The notes under the pieces were generated by a model. The model ran no database searches. It was not told the origin of the DNA and saw only the letters and a list, made by a program, of their open reading frames with translations. From a virus (lineage: Duplodnaviria; Caudoviricetes): 64,000 nucleotides of DNA. The stretch lies in the IMG/VR virus record IMGVR_UViG_3300042558_004043. The stretch is one strand, 5' to 3'. Of the stretch, positions 41,608 to 52,804 are shown piece after piece. Position numbers and translations under genes: made by a program. Position 1 is the stretch's first letter. The number at the start of each line of letters is the position of its first letter.

Positions 41608-42357
41608 TTATTTTAACATACCTTGAACCAACCCATAATAGATAACTTTATATTTTTTCATAGAGCTTCTAATTTCTTTGGTACTCAAATTAGTCATTTC
41701 CCTAAGTGATAATAAAATAATATTTTTATTAAACTTATTATTTGAAGTCCCTATGAATATATCATCATAATTTTGAAAAATTTCATATAAAGCGTGACCT
41801 AATTTTAACTCATTTTCATTTAATGTTTCATCCTCAATTAATAACTCTATTTGAGTTATAAAATTTTTGATAATCGTTTCTGAATCCAATGAATCATTAT
41901 CAATACTGTATGAAAAACTCGGGTTATTTTCCAAATCAGTTGAGATGTCTTCATAAGATATCTTTCTGTTCATATCTTTTTGGTCTTTTATAATTTGACC
42001 CATAAGATAATTTTTACAGATTGTACCAAAATATGAATAAGCCTTTTTTTCTTTAGCCGGCTTAAACTTATCTATTTTGGTCATTAAAAACGAGTGTGTA
42101 TCAATATGAATTTCTGTAAAATTCATATCTTTTCGGTAAAGTTTATATCTCCTTATTATCGAAGATATCATCTTATCTAAAGGTTTTCTTAGGTATTCGT
42201 TATAAATTTGGTTTTTCTCCTCAAATGTATCGGCGGATAAAAATCTTATAACCGCCATTTCTTCTCTTACATCAAAGTAGTTCGCTTGTTTTGGTTTCCT
42301 TCCTTTCTTCTTCAACTCGATATTTGCAGTTCCATCGTTGTTGAATTCTTCGGTCAT
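41608..42357 (-). CDS. Putative late-transcription sigma factor (T4 gp55-like)
   Basis: HSFLMTKIDKFKPAKEKKAYSYFGTICKNYL aligns by eye to the sigma region 2 segment of gp55 (..NFDP.K..NPFAYFTQI...AFL). Confidence 0.55.
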   Translation of the reverse strand: MTEEFNNDGTANIELKKKGRKPKQANYFDVREEMAVIRFLSADTFEEKNQIYNEYLRKPLDKMISSIIRRYKLYRKDMNFTEIHIDTHSFLMTKIDKFKPAKEKKAYSYFGTICKNYLMGQIIKDQKDMNRKISYEDISTDLENNPSFSYSIDNDSLDSETIIKNFITQIELLIEDETLNENELKLGHALYEIFQNYDDIFIGTSNNKFNKNIILLSLREMTNLSTKEIRSSMKKYKVIYYGLVQGMLK

Positions 42358-43160
42358 CAAGAATTGGTTGACTCATATTTTATGGCTCTGTCATTGATAA
42401 AGAAATATTCCTTTTTTGCCGATTCTATCCAAAATTTAACTTCGTCCTCAACTAAACTTGTCTCACCATTCTTGTAGTTCCAAAAAATAGAACCTGTTCT
42501 AAAATTTGTATGTTTATAACCAATCTTTGGTATGGTCATAATTTTAACTGAATTATACGTCATTCTTAAAAAGAATTCATATCCAAATGTCAGCTTAAAT
42601 GATGGTTTCATCAAACCGTAATCTACGAAGACACTTTTCTTAATTACCATACCTGAAGTTTGGAAATTTTGGAATTGATGTAATGTATCGTTACTTAAAT
42701 AACCAATTTCTGAAGTCATATTAAGTGCGAAAGTTGCTTCATTGGTAAAACCAACAAATAAACCTTTTTCATCGGTGTCAATCACAACCGGTAAAAAAGC
42801 ATCAACGTCTTTATAAATTTCCGAGTATTTTTTTACATTTTTAAACCAAATAGATGAATACTCATCGTCAAACTCAAATAGTGAAATCCATTGGGACGAA
42901 CTAGACCGTACCCCAAGATTTATTTGTTTTGCATAATTAGGTTCATCGTTCCATTTAACTTTGAGTACATTTAAGTCTCCAAAATCAAACGAATTTAAAA
43001 ATTCAACCAAAGACGTTTCATCCGAATGAACTATAACTAATTCATTTATTTGAACTTTTTGATTTTTTATAGATTCCACACATTTTTTAAAATAATCATC
43101 AAACCATGGAGCTGAAGATGATTTTATTGGTAATATTACTGATACGTCAAATTTTTCCAT
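42357..43160 (-). CDS. Glycosyltransferase family 2 (GT-A)
   Basis: VSVILP...KCVESIKNQ...ELVIV N-terminus and EFDD DxD-like motif. Confidence 0.85.
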   Translation of the reverse strand: MEKFDVSVILPIKSSSAPWFDDYFKKCVESIKNQKVQINELVIVHSDETSLVEFLNSFDFGDLNVLKVKWNDEPNYAKQINLGVRSSSSQWISLFEFDDEYSSIWFKNVKKYSEIYKDVDAFLPVVIDTDEKGLFVGFTNEATFALNMTSEIGYLSNDTLHQFQNFQTSGMVIKKSVFVDYGLMKPSFKLTFGYEFFLRMTYNSVKIMTIPKIGYKHTNFRTGSIFWNYKNGETSLVEDEVKFWIESAKKEYFFINDRAIKYESTNS

Positions 43161-43169
43161 AATTTTAAA

Positions 43170-50269: not shown

Positions 50270-50862
50270 ATTCCTGTACTCCCAAAACCGTTATCTCCCC
50301 TATCTTTAGAGGTAACATTTTTATGTTCAACCAAATTAACCCAAGCGCCATTAACAACTGGACAAAGAACCGCTTGACCCACCTTCATTCCTTTCGGTAT
50401 TTGAACCTCGTGATTATTTGTATTAAAAATTATAACTTGTACTTCTCCGGTATATCCGTTATCAACAGTTCCAGGTGAATTAAGAACCATTAAACCTTGT
50501 TTAATTGCCAAACCGCTTTTTGACCTAACTTGAATTTCATATCCATCTTTAATATCAAAGGATAGTCCTGTTGGAACCAAAACCCTACCAAATGGAGGTA
50601 TTGTTACTTCTTCGGTTGAATATAAATCAAACCCGGAATCTGATGGGTAATTATAGGATGGAGAAACTGCATCATCTACCAATTTTATAAACCCTAATTC
50701 TAATTTTGGTTTATAATTGAGCATATCATTTTCAAGTTCTTTAACATCTACACCAGTAACTTTTAAAATTTCGTCATAATCAAAATCGTAACTATTATCA
50801 GAAAGTAATTCTTTAATTTTTTCAGATTCTTCTTTTGACATTCCAAAAAAGTCTAAATTCAT
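50266..50862 (-). CDS. dut: dUTPase (trimeric type) with acidic N-terminal extension
   Basis: SGFDL, KSGLA, GTVDNGYTGE, RGDNGFGSTG motifs. Confidence 0.93.
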   Translation of the reverse strand: MNLDFFGMSKEESEKIKELLSDNSYDFDYDEILKVTGVDVKELENDMLNYKPKLELGFIKLVDDAVSPSYNYPSDSGFDLYSTEEVTIPPFGRVLVPTGLSFDIKDGYEIQVRSKSGLAIKQGLMVLNSPGTVDNGYTGEVQVIIFNTNNHEVQIPKGMKVGQAVLCPVVNGAWVNLVEHKNVTSKDRGDNGFGSTGI

Positions 50863-51587
50863 TGTAATTCTTTTAATTTTTTTATAATATCAATTAATAC
50901 TTGAACATCACGTTCACAATATTCACTAATTTCTTTTAACTTTCTATCAACCCAATATGAATCATGAACCATATCTCCCGTTATTTCACCTTCCTTTGAT
51001 GTTGGTATATCCATACAAGAACAAAGTAAATCTAATGACCCTATTGAACTATATGCTCCGTATTGCCATATCTCTTTAGTATCGATTGCTTTAATTTCCC
51101 AAGGTTTTGTGTCATATGAAGGTAGAATTGATGGAGGCATTAGACCATTGATAACCATACGTTTCGCTAACATGGGTATATCAAAATTTTTAAGATTATG
51201 ACCACATAAGTGAAAATCCAATTTACCACATCTGTCCAATAATTTTTGAACATCTTTCAATAGTTCCAATTCATCGTCACCTGAAAATGTTTGCATTTTT
51301 GTTTCATCTTTATCTGTAACAAACGCAACACTAACACAAATAATCTTTGCAAATTCGGGAACTAAAGCAGCTCTTTTTGCGAATATTCTATCTCGTTTTT
51401 TTTCCTCCTGTTCTATATTACTTACCGTATTATCATCTTCAGGAAATCTTTTTAAAAACCAATCATAGTAATTTATAAATTGAGTTGCTACTTTAGGATT
51501 TAATGCCTGACATGTAGTGAAATCAGGACATCCCCCAACCGTTTCAATATCAATGAATAATATTTTGGTGATAGGGATTTTTATCAT
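50859..51587 (-). CDS. DEDD 3'-5' exonuclease (PolB exonuclease-like)
   Basis: FIDIETV (ExoI), GHNLKNFDIPML (ExoII), YCERDV (ExoIII). Confidence 0.85.
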   Translation of the reverse strand: MIKIPITKILFIDIETVGGCPDFTTCQALNPKVATQFINYYDWFLKRFPEDDNTVSNIEQEEKKRDRIFAKRAALVPEFAKIICVSVAFVTDKDETKMQTFSGDDELELLKDVQKLLDRCGKLDFHLCGHNLKNFDIPMLAKRMVINGLMPPSILPSYDTKPWEIKAIDTKEIWQYGAYSSIGSLDLLCSCMDIPTSKEGEITGDMVHDSYWVDRKLKEISEYCERDVQVLIDIIKKLKELQ

Positions 51588-52804
51588 TGTACCAAAGTTT
51601 TATACCATTCTGCTCTATTTTTTGTAACATTTCTCAAATCATAAGTGTCTTTAACAGTTTCATAAAGACGCTCACCCATATCGGTTATCATATTTGGATT
51701 TTGAATGAGTTTTTTAACGTATTTTGACCAATCACTGTGATTTTTGTGTTCGTCAACTAATAAGGCGTTCCCATCAACAAAGTTACCATTATTTAAACTA
51801 TGTTTTAAATCAATAGTGTATGGACCAATTTCGGAAGCAATAAGTGCCTTCTTATAAAAACCTGCCTCAATAACCTTCAATTGAGATTTCATTCTGTTAA
51901 AGATATGGTTCTTAATTGGGGCCAATGAAATATCCAACTTAGAGTAGTTCATTGCGTATGTAGTTACAGGTTTTGTCCAAACTCTACGATATGGTAAACT
52001 AGTTTCATTTGGGAATTCAACATCTTTAAATTCCATCAAAAATTTCTTATACTCGTCACCAACAACTGCATAATTGTTTGTAAAAATTTCTTCATATCTA
52101 ACCCAAACGGTTTCATGAGGAAGTATGTCTCTACGTTTTTCTTCTCCTGTTTTTGGATTAATTTCCGTCATAGTACCACGAGTATCAAAACCACAAATCA
52201 CATATTGAATTTTATCGTTGATTTCCTTTCCGTTCTTTTCAACCATTCCATCGAGTAACAACAAATCATGAAGGTGAGATGAACCTCCGAGCCAACCAAC
52301 TCTAATTCTTTCTGATTCTAAGGTTGGTTGTTTAAATTGAGGTTCGGTTGGGTCGATAGCGTTTGGAAAAATAATGACATTTTTGTTTATTTTCTTAATT
52401 TCATCCGCAAAAATTGTTGTAGTAGTAGTGACATAACTTGCCTCCCGTAAATTTGCAACAATCTTTTCGTTTAATTTATGATTTACAATTAATTGATGAA
52501 TCGGGTGTTCTCTTGTGGGTAACCAATAATCGTCAATGTCGACTACAACTACAATACCTAATGATTTAAGTTGTTTGATAAGTTGAGGTACAATATCATA
52601 GTTTTGTCCAATACTTCTGTGAGCGTGAACTATTTGGTATTGTTTCCAATAGTTAACATCATTTATTTTTGGTTCATAATCAATATCCACATGGAAATCA
52701 TCAGGATAAAGATTTTGTAACATGACATGGGGGTCTAGAGAACGAAATTTTCCGACGCCGGTACGGTCCGATGGGAGAACTAATACTTTGATTTTTTCTT
52801 TCAT
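51584..52804 (-). CDS. Glycosyltransferase, GT-B (GT4-like)
   Basis: GVGKFRS.DPH, DIDDYW, RVGWLGGSSH, DISLAP...FN..KS.LKVIEAG...ALIAS. ATG 52804 preferred over the track start 52852. Confidence 0.8.
   Translation of the reverse strand: MKEKIKVLVLPSDRTGVGKFRSLDPHVMLQNLYPDDFHVDIDYEPKINDVNYWKQYQIVHAHRSIGQNYDIVPQLIKQLKSLGIVVVVDIDDYWLPTREHPIHQLIVNHKLNEKIVANLREASYVTTTTTIFADEIKKINKNVIIFPNAIDPTEPQFKQPTLESERIRVGWLGGSSHLHDLLLLDGMVEKNGKEINDKIQYVICGFDTRGTMTEINPKTGEEKRRDILPHETVWVRYEEIFTNNYAVVGDEYKKFLMEFKDVEFPNETSLPYRRVWTKPVTTYAMNYSKLDISLAPIKNHIFNRMKSQLKVIEAGFYKKALIASEIGPYTIDLKHSLNNGNFVDGNALLVDEHKNHSDWSKYVKKLIQNPNMITDMGERLYETVKDTYDLRNVTKNRAEWYKTLVQ

Follow-up and report, generated by a model that had tools for sequence, protein, structure and literature searches.

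A soluble glycan-building operon beside giant Thr/Pro-rich proteins in a freshwater jumbo phage, and its possible role in virion protein glycosylation

A 64,000-nt stretch of IMG/VR record IMGVR_UViG_3300042558_004043 (hereafter the window), from a freshwater (lake-water) jumbo phage of ~320 kb, raises the question of what a tailed phage builds with a set of its own glycosyltransferases (GTs), and on which acceptor. On the minus strand, from 52804 down to 41608, lies a single co-directional operon of 14 genes, most of them translationally coupled, with overlapping starts and stops between neighbours (Table 1). The operon mixes an exonuclease, a dUTPase and PhoH with four conserved soluble GTs, and ends with a sigma-factor-like gene. 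An initial annotation had called the block a glycan cluster of two GT-B enzymes, one GT2, a two-domain GT, a DUF616-like protein, Gmd and two FkbM methyltransferases, none with an obvious signal peptide. All of these enzymes were recovered, with weak matches for the GT-B at 43170-44231 and the GT25 part, and neither a TM-like segment nor a visible signal peptide was seen in any of them. The name itself proved too narrow, since the block also holds the exonuclease, dUTPase, PhoH, two unknown ORFs and the sigma-factor-like gene.

Table 1. Features of the operon and its surroundings, in window coordinates
Feature	Coordinates	Strand	Remarks
TP-tract giant protein, 2668 aa	21538..29544	+	Canonical late-type motif upstream
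Phage sigma-factor-like protein	41608..42357	-	Last gene of the operon; start overlaps GT2 stop
GT2 glycosyltransferase, 267 aa	42357..43160	-	PF00535, 28 bits, above cut-off
Probable GT-B glycosyltransferase, 353 aa	43170..44231	-	Weak matches; backbone gene
Conserved unknown protein, 86 aa	44233..44493	-	Conserved across related loci
Conserved unknown protein, 200 aa	44487..45089	-	Backbone gene
PhoH-like ATPase	45086..45808	-	PF02562, E 1e-63; backbone gene
GDP-mannose 4,6-dehydratase (Gmd)	45805..46782	-	PF16363, E 8e-119
Swappable cassette: TOD1-like GT and two FkbM methyltransferases	46796..48852		Breakpoints relative to G001
TOD1/MUCI70-like (former DUF616) putative GT	46817..47536	-	Atlas features 0.97; structure TM 0.77
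FkbM-family methyltransferase 2	47542..48171	-	PF05050, E 2e-16; TIGR01444, E 7e-25
FkbM-family methyltransferase 1	48168..48794	-	PF05050, E 2e-19; TIGR01444; phrog_8156
Two-domain GT	48851..50269	-	N-terminal PF13712 GT-A, E 4e-32; C-terminal weakly GT25-like, E 0.007
dUTPase	50266..50862	-	PF00692, E 1e-25; synteny conserved
PolB-exonuclease-like 3'-5' exonuclease	50859..51587	-	PF10108, E 3e-13; synteny conserved; start overlaps GT406 by 4 nt
Core GT, GT4-type GT-B (RfaG-like), 406 aa (GT406)	51584..52804	-	First gene of the operon, ATG at 52804
Sigma70-like promoter TTGATA-N17-TATACT	52824..52852	-	19 nt before the first gene's ATG
TATTTAT of the initial annotation	52858..52864	-	Atypical; within the terminator's T-tail
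Intrinsic terminator	52868..52889	-	9-bp stem, 5 GC pairs, T-run
Divergent pair of canonical late-type TATTTAT	55511..55537		Minus 55511-55517, plus 55531-55537
TP-tract protein, 1171 aa	55550..59065	+	Canonical late-type motif upstream

GT406 matched profile phrog_7162 (E 7e-41), and its structure model (pLDDT 85) matched GlgM, MshA, BshA, PglA and PimA in Foldseek (E 1e-13 to 1e-10) as well as chlorovirus GT4 structure 3oy2; it is 50-96% identical across 57 loci. The N-terminal domain of the two-domain GT is conserved, and its C-terminal domain is swapped for others in many relatives. The probable GT-B matched PF00534 (GT1; E 0.0065) and PDB 8xsg, a 'putative glycosyltransferase' (E 2e-4), both weakly, and the GT2 showed a weak match to a rhamnosyltransferase subfamily. 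No Pfam match to the TOD1/MUCI70-like protein was found by hmmscan, and family and PDB searches with the 200-aa protein gave no match. The last gene product matched TIGR02937 (E 0.0075) and resembled viral 'RNA polymerase sigma factor' clusters (Atlas features 0.99). Gmd is carried by only some relatives; no partner reductase or epimerase for it was found in the 108 kb examined, which contain a single SDR. The GT4, GT2 and PF13712 folds of the block are uninformative on the acceptor, and co-transcription with the dUTPase, exonuclease and PhoH would fit an auxiliary or host-takeover function equally well. Taken together, the predicted functions support a soluble, cytoplasmic glycan-building toolkit, including an enzyme for a 6-deoxyhexose precursor and methyltransferases of the sugar type, that directly adjoins an array of giant Thr/Pro-rich proteins.

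The initial annotation had described the block as led by a late motif, starting right after a terminator. The terminator is real: it closes an upstream late-type operon (55499 to 52895), and a hairpin with a T-run is kept at its position in most relatives. The motif did not hold up. Position -1 carries T, whereas A is found there in 20 of 24 canonical sites, and position +7 carries C; the motif lies 60 nt before the ATG as against 11-40 nt at canonical sites, and just 2 of 24 relatives have it ahead of the operon's first gene, compared with conservation in 23/24 and 6/6 relatives at control sites. The extended motif ATATTTATA was found 13 times in the window versus 4.8 expected, and never inside 42357-52864. 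The TATTTAT at this position is most likely a chance match; a sigma70-like promoter stands there instead, its -35/-10 pair conserved among relatives. In G001, the closest relative with a complete genome (321 kb), this promoter class is enriched in non-coding DNA (11 of 19 sites versus 1.5 expected) and also precedes genes for DnaK, RmlC, a T9SS-signal (CHU_C) protein and, ambiguously, PolB. After the terminator, then, the operon opens with this conserved promoter and not with a late-type TATTTAT. The canonical divergent TATTTAT pair stands ahead of the five-gene operon upstream on one side and of the gene for the 1171-aa TP-rich protein on the other, and is conserved in 23 of 24 relatives.

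Synteny across 57 related lake-phage loci identified the four GTs as backbone genes, flanking a hypervariable island that encodes sugar-nucleotide enzymes, methyltransferases and further GTs and spans 3.5-10 kb in relatives. The 263 island ORFs from 27 loci fell into 125 clusters, among them methyltransferases, Gmd, epimerases, a DegT aminotransferase, GT2/10/11/17/31, and acetyl- and nucleotidyl-transferases. In the source phage the island holds Gmd and a 2-kb cassette; in G001, otherwise 85-89% identical, homology stops cleanly at the cassette's borders, and ~5.1 kb of other genes stand there instead. Multi-TM proteins were absent from the block, the 263 island ORFs, G001 and a second relative, G005, and a cytoplasmic, lipid-independent chemistry would therefore be expected. 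In freshwater jumbo 'moraphages' of 200-307 kb, which carry DnaK genes and whose predicted hosts are Flavobacteriia, four of the core orthologous groups have a GT annotation (Perez-Hernandez et al. 2025, PMC12619734). By description, the level at which the two were compared, these groups and DnaK match the four GTs of the backbone here and the DnaK of G001, and the source phage family probably belongs to the same lineage; that paper lists the GTs, and the operon, island and promoter class are described here.

The candidate acceptors adjoin the block. The repeats reported by the initial annotation are real, with 339 and 177 residues in TP-rich sequence windows of the 2668-aa and 1171-aa proteins, respectively. 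The larger protein contains (T-P-T-x)n tracts of up to ~250 residues; in the smaller, the N-terminal ~620 aa are conserved family-wide, and the C-terminal half consists of variable modules with TP linkers. The largest cluster of giant TP-rich proteins lies right next to the block; six such proteins occur in the 108 kb examined and 15 in G001. From late-type promoters, size and position alone, we infer that these are virion proteins; no structural family was found in them, and no homologue in cultured phages. A PF11397/GT60-like polypeptide GlcNAc-transferase gene (E 9e-66), located outside the block and the window, is present in 5/5 large relatives, where it stands beside Ser/Thr-rich proteins. 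To our knowledge, all characterised GT60 enzymes act on polypeptides (CAZy GT60). The strong PF11397 match of the relatives resembles Dictyostelium Gnt1 and pp-alphaGlcNAcT2 and the T. cruzi mucin OGNT. Trypanosome mucin repeats are called to mind by the T-x-T-x tracts, which include Lys/Pro. Compared with GT60 systems, the block here, in which no recognisable protein-initiating GT was found, would give extension and decoration only, and the link between the two is our inference. The cultured jumbo phage XacN1 encodes a GT60-like protein (ORF334; 47% identical) with TP tracts nearby, and its virions hold at least two glycoproteins (PMC5852040). XacN1 makes do with two GTs, and no clear counterpart of the block was found in it; therefore, virion glycosylation as such can proceed without the block.

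What the toolkit acts on can be weighed among several readings. Glycosylation of the phage's own virion proteins appears to us the best of these, although it is held tentatively. The initial proposal of a glycan on mucin-like stalks is supported in part by the toolkit, its adjacency to the TP proteins, the GT60-like gene of relatives and the XacN1 glycoproteins; its late-motif premise falls away, and G005 is at odds with it. That relative has both the block and the GT60 gene, but TP tracts are nearly absent from it; in their stead it shows just short linkers of poly-Thr and a single protein with Gly-Ser/Thr repeats. It favours a rival in which the glycan would go to other phage proteins such as capsid or sheath, to proteins of the host, or to a product that is soluble or polymeric; the TP tracts would then serve simply as flexible linkers, and their nearness to the block would be incidental. 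Pro/Thr linkers are common unglycosylated spacers of bacterial multidomain proteins, and GT406 has homologues at 26% identity in phi92/rV5-like coliphages, in which we know of no Thr/Pro tracts. We nevertheless consider this rival unlikely, given the polypeptide GT in all five large relatives near Ser/Thr-rich proteins and the scale of the tracts, which, with hundreds of residues and Thr at every second position, goes beyond linker needs.

Somewhat unlikely, too, is a remodelling of the host envelope, in which the GTs, Gmd and methyltransferases would act at the cytoplasmic face on undecaprenyl-linked precursors of host O-antigen, capsule or protein O-glycan, and a host flippase would export the products, changing the infected-cell surface, for example for superinfection exclusion or receptor masking. 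This would suit an operon that is apparently not late and shares its promoter class with host-like DnaK, RmlC and T9SS-signal (CHU_C) genes in G001, as well as the grouping of PhoH, dUTPase and glycan genes, which is like that of cyanophage auxiliary-gene regions, and Gmd homologues are common among cyanomyoviruses. The island also resembles bacterial O-antigen/capsule loci (Wzx/Wzy- or ABC-dependent) in its content, in its conserved flanks around hypervariable GTs, sugar-nucleotide and modifying enzymes, and in cassette replacement between close strains. In contrast to such loci, all proteins here are soluble, and no initiating polyprenyl-phosphate transferase, flippase, polymerase or transporter was found in 27 islands or in two large relatives (one complete, one 85% complete). 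Moreover, the four GTs form the core backbone of a lytic-type jumbo phage family, probably the lineage with four core GT groups (PMC12619734), and are not accessory morons; a phage that lyses its cell would have little obvious gain from a new surface. DNA base glycosylation, with the GTs hypermodifying phage DNA like T-even glucosyltransferases, would explain the interleaved dUTPase and exonuclease, and the co-transcription of GTs with nucleotide-metabolism genes in a non-late operon agrees with it, as do the diverse glycans that can occur on phage DNA (Pyle et al. 2024, as cited in PMC12619734). It is nonetheless very improbable, because G001 has a single gene of the thymidylate synthase family, and its product is a true ThyA (E 2e-77 against solved ThyA structures), not a hydroxymethylase. 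A C5-cytosine methylase was not found in G001, and the dUTPase and ThyA point to ordinary thymine; a Tet/JBP search was uninformative, its control being silent. The island enzymes (fucosyltransferase families GT10/GT11, GT17, GT31, sugar O-methyltransferases and aminotransferases) make complex glycans, and the DNA glycans known to us are unlike these.

Viral precedents exist for virion protein glycosylation. The machinery of chlorovirus PBCV-1 (A064R, A111/114R, GMD and others) likewise comprises virus-encoded GTs that are soluble and have no membrane segments, some GTs with several domains, a GDP-mannose 4,6-dehydratase, and functions for sugar methylation. Its GTs are expressed before the structural proteins that they modify and work in the cytoplasm (PMC5408694), a timing that would apply here too. 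Early expression only, which the initial annotation would have counted against its proposal, is not a valid objection, because the early, soluble GTs of PBCV-1 glycosylate a late virion protein, the capsid protein (PMC5408694). PBCV-1 is a eukaryotic virus with scattered genes and N-linked glycans on its major capsid protein, whereas here a tailed phage has one operon with a swappable cassette, and the proposed acceptors are Thr/Pro tracts known from genes alone. Mycobacteriophages, in the account of Freeman et al. (2023) given in PMC12619734, also glycosylate their own virion proteins with their own GTs, as proposed here; according to that account, these are small siphoviruses with one or two GTs that modify capsid and tail-tube subunits at their C-termini, in contrast to the 14-gene, apparently non-late operon here, with sugar-nucleotide and methylation enzymes, a hypervariable island and candidate giant TP-tract acceptors.

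Under virion protein glycosylation, the operon would be expressed ahead of the late genes and would build up a cytoplasmic store of GTs, sugar O-methyltransferases and a GDP-6-deoxyhexose precursor. The first sugar would be added by a GT60-like polypeptide GlcNAc-transferase, whose gene would lie in another part of the genome, and the block enzymes would extend and decorate the resulting O-glycans on the phage's late Ser/Thr/Pro-rich giant proteins, with the swappable cassette giving a glycan terminus that may be strain-specific.

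The window belongs to the record of a phage from lake water, of which 108 kb was examined. All public datasets listed with its sequence are lake or freshwater metagenomes, with no RNA run among them. It encodes a T4-type prohead protease and major head protein (phrog_207, phrog_138), and on the minus strand 14 co-directional genes, joined mostly by 4-nt overlaps or gaps of a few bases, form an operon whose first product is the glycosyltransferase (GT) GT406. The enzyme families named in the initial annotation were all found in this operon, and its observation that the glycan enzymes have no obvious signal peptide was borne out, since neither TM-like segments nor signal-like N-termini are present in any protein of the block. 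As a glycan cluster, however, the block had been described incompletely: an exonuclease, a dUTPase, PhoH and a sigma-like gene of the same transcription unit were overlooked. We conclude with high confidence that this is a conserved, non-late operon of nucleotide-metabolism genes, four core soluble GTs and a recombining glycan-tailoring cassette. PDB sequence searches with GT406, the two-domain GT, the TOD1-like protein, the sigma-like protein and a 200-aa protein without assigned function gave no match or no significant one. The last of these, which is conserved and lies beside PhoH, may adopt an inactive nucleotidase-like fold. By family assignment, Gmd and the two FkbM methyltransferases would be virus-encoded nucleotide-sugar and sugar-modifying enzymes. 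Judged from these genes alone, the final sugar may be a methylated 6-deoxyhexose, a prediction kept conditional because the partner reductase of Gmd was not found in the examined 108 kb.

Features of the operon and its surroundings (window coordinates unless another sequence is named)
Feature	Coordinates	Strand	Remarks
Operon, 14 genes	52804-41608	-	
Gene 1, GT406, GT4-type GT-B, 406 aa	51584-52804	-	phrog_7162; model pLDDT 85; Foldseek GlgM, MshA, BshA, PglA, PimA
Gene 2, PolB-exonuclease-like nuclease		-	
Gene 3, dUTPase		-	
Gene 4, two-domain GT		-	PF13712 and weak GT25 match
Genes 5-6, FkbM methyltransferases		-	
Gene 7, TOD1/MUCI70 (DUF616)-like protein		-	
Gene 8, Gmd		-	E 8e-119
Gene 9, PhoH		-	
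Genes 10-11, no assigned function		-	
Gene 12, probable GT-B		-	
Gene 13, GT2		-	
Gene 14, phage sigma-factor-like protein	41608-42357	-	weak TIGR02937 match; Atlas features 0.99 to viral sigma-factor clusters
200-aa protein	44487-45089	-	N-terminal HAD-like 'IGIEVNGVL', both catalytic Asp replaced (E, N); no family match
Variable cassette	46796-48852		
Sigma70-like -35/-10 pair	52824-52852		
TATTTAT before the first GT	52858-52864		
Terminator	52889-52868		
Divergent TATTTAT pair	55511-55537		
Five-gene operon	55499 to 52895		
Thr/Pro-rich protein	21538-29544		
Thr/Pro-rich protein	55550-59065		
S8 subtilase-domain protein	7014-9338	+	after head genes
3998-aa protein	9420-21416	+	after subtilase gene; ConA-like lectin (Laminin_G_3) domain; canonical TATTTAT in front
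609-aa protein, G001	L169:9422-11251	+	CHU_C type IX secretion signal; behind sigma70-like promoter
Full DnaK/Hsp70, G001	L170:16484-18361	+	behind sigma70-like promoter
dTDP-4-dehydrorhamnose 3,5-epimerase, G001	L171:4285-4782	-	behind sigma70-like promoter
422-aa protein, G005 (L176 region)	104663-105931	+	mostly Gly-Ser/Thr triplet repeats; 1 kb downstream of GT60-like gene

All block proteins were mapped onto 57 IMG/VR loci matched by the two-domain GT. The backbone runs from five unknown genes led by TATTTAT through a terminator, GT406, the exonuclease, the dUTPase and the N-domain of the two-domain GT to a variable island, after which come PhoH, two unknown genes, GT-B, GT2 and the sigma-like gene. 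Several relatives (L009, L018, L041, L057) carry extra coding sequence instead of the terminator/promoter spacer before the GT406 homologue. The island measures 3.5 to 10 kb among relatives, and the 263 ORFs that it holds in 27 non-redundant loci form 125 sequence clusters. Of these clusters, the 43 that recur were surveyed with Pfam, which returned methyltransferases (Methyltransf_24, FkbM, TylF), Gmd, SDR epimerases, DegT aminotransferases, GT2, GT10, GT11, GT17, GT31, a hexapeptide acyltransferase and nucleotidyltransferases. G001, the closest complete relative (a 321,403-bp IMG/VR contig with terminal repeats), shares 85-89% DNA identity with the window on both flanks, with a clean homology break at the cassette, where it has ~5.1 kb of other genes in place of the TOD1-like and two FkbM genes; the C-terminal domain of the two-domain GT is likewise exchanged among relatives. 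This is how a glycan 'serotype' locus is laid out. Read mapping of four lake metagenomes at 85% likeness placed the minimum of summed contig depth at 46972-49288 and gave a few joints bypassing parts of the island; metagenome depths and low-likeness joints are unreliable, and neither result counts as evidence.

The operon had initially been placed under the late-type motif TATTTAT. This motif is a genuine signal in the genome: in the examined 108 kb it stands 11-40 nt ahead of a start codon 24 times, with the consensus [A/G]A-TATTTAT-A (A at -1 in 20/24), and canonical copies stand in front of the prohead protease, the gene upstream of the head protein, giant proteins and both tract-bearing Thr/Pro-rich proteins of the window. 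The extended motif ATATTTATA occurs 13 times in the window versus 4.8 expected, with none within 42357-52864. The copy before the first GT has a T at -1 and -2, a C at +7 and an atypical distance of 60 nt from the ATG, coincides with the T-run of the terminator, and is kept in 2 of 24 non-redundant relatives, whereas the control sites upstream of genes 54666-55499 (neighbouring operon) and 41208-41582 are kept in 23 of 24 and 6 of 6, respectively. These counts settle the question against a late promoter. Two elements are conserved before the first GT, the terminator and then (G)TTGATA-N17-TATA(A/T)T, which forms a sigma70-like -35/-10 pair; in G001, 11 of the 19 occurrences of this pattern fall in non-coding DNA versus 1.5 expected. 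A host-type TAnnTTTG TAATTTTG lies 37 nt upstream of the first ATG and was rejected as the operon promoter because it is without a -33 TTTG and is unconserved in relatives. The operon may be pre-late, because it ends with a sigma-factor-like gene and is followed by a gene with a canonical TATTTAT of its own. If the sigma-like protein drives TATTTAT promoters, the late-gene switch would be co-transcribed with the glycan enzymes.

Three promoter-like classes, all enriched in non-coding DNA, occur together (G001 L168-L171; window 52824-52852): ATATTTAT (88 versus 9.9 expected in G001 non-coding DNA), Bacteroidota-type TTTG/TAnnTTTG, and E. coli-like TTGAYW-N16-18-TAKAHT. For a phage whose host is presumed to be one of the Bacteroidota, a sigma70-consensus class comes as a surprise. 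Other G001 genes behind it encode an HTH protein, a protein with a T9SS signal (CHU_C), DnaK, RmlC and, ambiguously, a family-B DNA polymerase. The CHU_C signal speaks for a Bacteroidota host and may mean that a phage-encoded protein is exported to the surface of the host cell. Two back-to-back, divergent canonical TATTTAT motifs serve the five-gene operon and a Thr/Pro-tract protein gene, and both are conserved in nearly all relatives.

The block directly adjoins the genome's main array of Thr/Pro-rich (TP) giants, of which six were found in the examined 108 kb and 15 in G001, mostly of 600-2300 aa. Their tracts are long (T-P-T-x)n runs, as had been noted for two proteins of the window; one tract in the protein at 21538-29544 spans ~250 residues. 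From their late-type promoters, size and position, the TP proteins may be virion proteins. PHROGs and Pfam searches assigned no structural family to them; the matches were limited to families of unknown function, a beta-propeller repeat and one ConA-like lectin domain. For the conserved N-terminal 620 aa of the TP protein at 55550-59065, fold prediction was unusable (pLDDT 36) and tblastn against cultured phages gave no match. A possible initiating enzyme appears in the relatives: PF11397 (GT60, 'GlcNAc') matches in G001 (E 9e-66) and in 5/5 large relatives overall (E about 1e-56 to 1e-65); in the window's own genome such a gene would lie outside the examined 108 kb. In G001 and in G005, a large relative, the GT60-like gene is part of another cluster of GT and methyltransferase genes, after which Ser/Thr-rich proteins and DNA polymerase are encoded, and in G005 this second cluster is immediately beside the block. 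G005 retains both GT clusters with TP tracts almost absent; its 422-aa Gly-Ser/Thr repeat protein may be the acceptor there.

GT60-like homologues of 45-48% identity are present in the cultured jumbo phages XacN1, Xoo-sp13, CM1 and RAS14, and in XacN1 the giant ORF neighbouring the gene has TP tracts. Within 203370-235596 of Xanthomonas phage XacN1 (L181), GT60-like ORF334 lies near DNA polymerase, a carbamoyltransferase, a GT9-like gene and giant ORF325 (PTPTPT tracts), so that XacN1 and the lake phages follow the same neighbourhood logic. [quoted passage not shown]

The most likely function of the operon, for which we see slightly less than an even chance, is to extend and decorate O-glycans carried by late Ser/Thr/Pro-rich proteins of the phage itself; the GT60-like enzyme that starts these glycans would be encoded outside the operon, elsewhere in the genome. 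Of the virion O-glycosylation of TPT stalks proposed initially, the enzymes, the tracts and the GT60-like gene in relatives speak for the idea, whereas its late promoter fell away and the nearly TP-free G005 fits it poorly. Pre-late timing is no argument against virion glycosylation, since the GT genes of PBCV-1 are all early and their soluble products act in the cytoplasm on the late capsid protein (PMC5408694). The features shared with PBCV-1-type machinery are virus-encoded soluble GTs without signal peptide or membrane segment and virus-encoded nucleotide-sugar and sugar-modifying enzymes, here by family assignment. GT60-initiated mucin-type O-glycosylation offers a further likeness in Ser/Thr-rich repeat proteins near the enzymes, found beside the GT60-like gene in G001 and G005 (few in G005). 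GtfA/GtfB glycosylation of serine-rich-repeat adhesins differs, as the top 50 Foldseek matches of GT406 are all generic GT4 enzymes, GtfA not among them.

That the host envelope is the acceptor appears unlikely; the enzymes could modify it solely by acting on lipid-linked intermediates of the host. Such a role would suit the non-late promoter class and the neighbouring PhoH-, DnaK- and RmlC-type genes, but the GTs are core genes of the phage group and export genes are wholly absent: a hydropathy scan of the block, the 263 island ORFs and all proteins of G001 (complete) and G005 (85% complete) revealed no multi-TM protein of the kind expected for a flippase, polymerase, initiating transferase or exporter. 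An O-antigen or capsule locus differs in having a polyprenyl-phosphate initiating transferase with flippase and polymerase, or an ABC exporter. Base glycosylation of phage DNA, as in T-even phages, is highly improbable. The gene content of G001 offers no known route to a hydroxymethyl-pyrimidine acceptor: neither a pyrimidine hydroxymethylase nor a C5-cytosine methylase was found, and its one thymidylate-synthase-family gene matches solved ThyA enzymes (E 2e-77), which together with the dUTPase indicates ordinary thymine. A Tet_JBP family search gave no match, its controls being silent as well.

Beyond O-glycan extension on late proteins, a fuller picture is conceivable, if doubtful: giant Thr/Pro-stalked appendages of freshwater jumbo phages, coated with a strain-specific O-glycan that a GT60-like enzyme would start, pre-late GTs would extend and a recombining 'glycan serotype' cassette would cap, here with a methylated 6-deoxyhexose. 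Such a system would give the virion itself a diversity comparable to that of O-antigens, and would be co-transcribed with a sigma factor that possibly activates the acceptor genes. The lineage probably corresponds to the 'moraphages' of PMC12619734, a paper that records four core GT groups and analyses them no further; new here is a second, non-late operon with conserved flanks, a swappable island and its own promoter class. Should the glycans sit on the virion, phages that are abundant in lakes would bear a sugar coat that varies and whose genetics mirror bacterial O-antigen loci, with a swappable cassette between conserved flanks. This coat could influence the adsorption and aggregation of the particles as well as grazing and their recognition by host defences. 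Virus-encoded protein glycosylation would then reach Bacteroidota jumbo phages, beyond chloroviruses, mimiviruses and mycobacteriophages. The operon provides a concrete, testable enzyme set, and the cultured GT60-bearing jumbo phages are a practical entry point. Even without a link to the virion, the layout of conserved flanks around a variable island and the three promoter classes help to annotate a widespread phage group.
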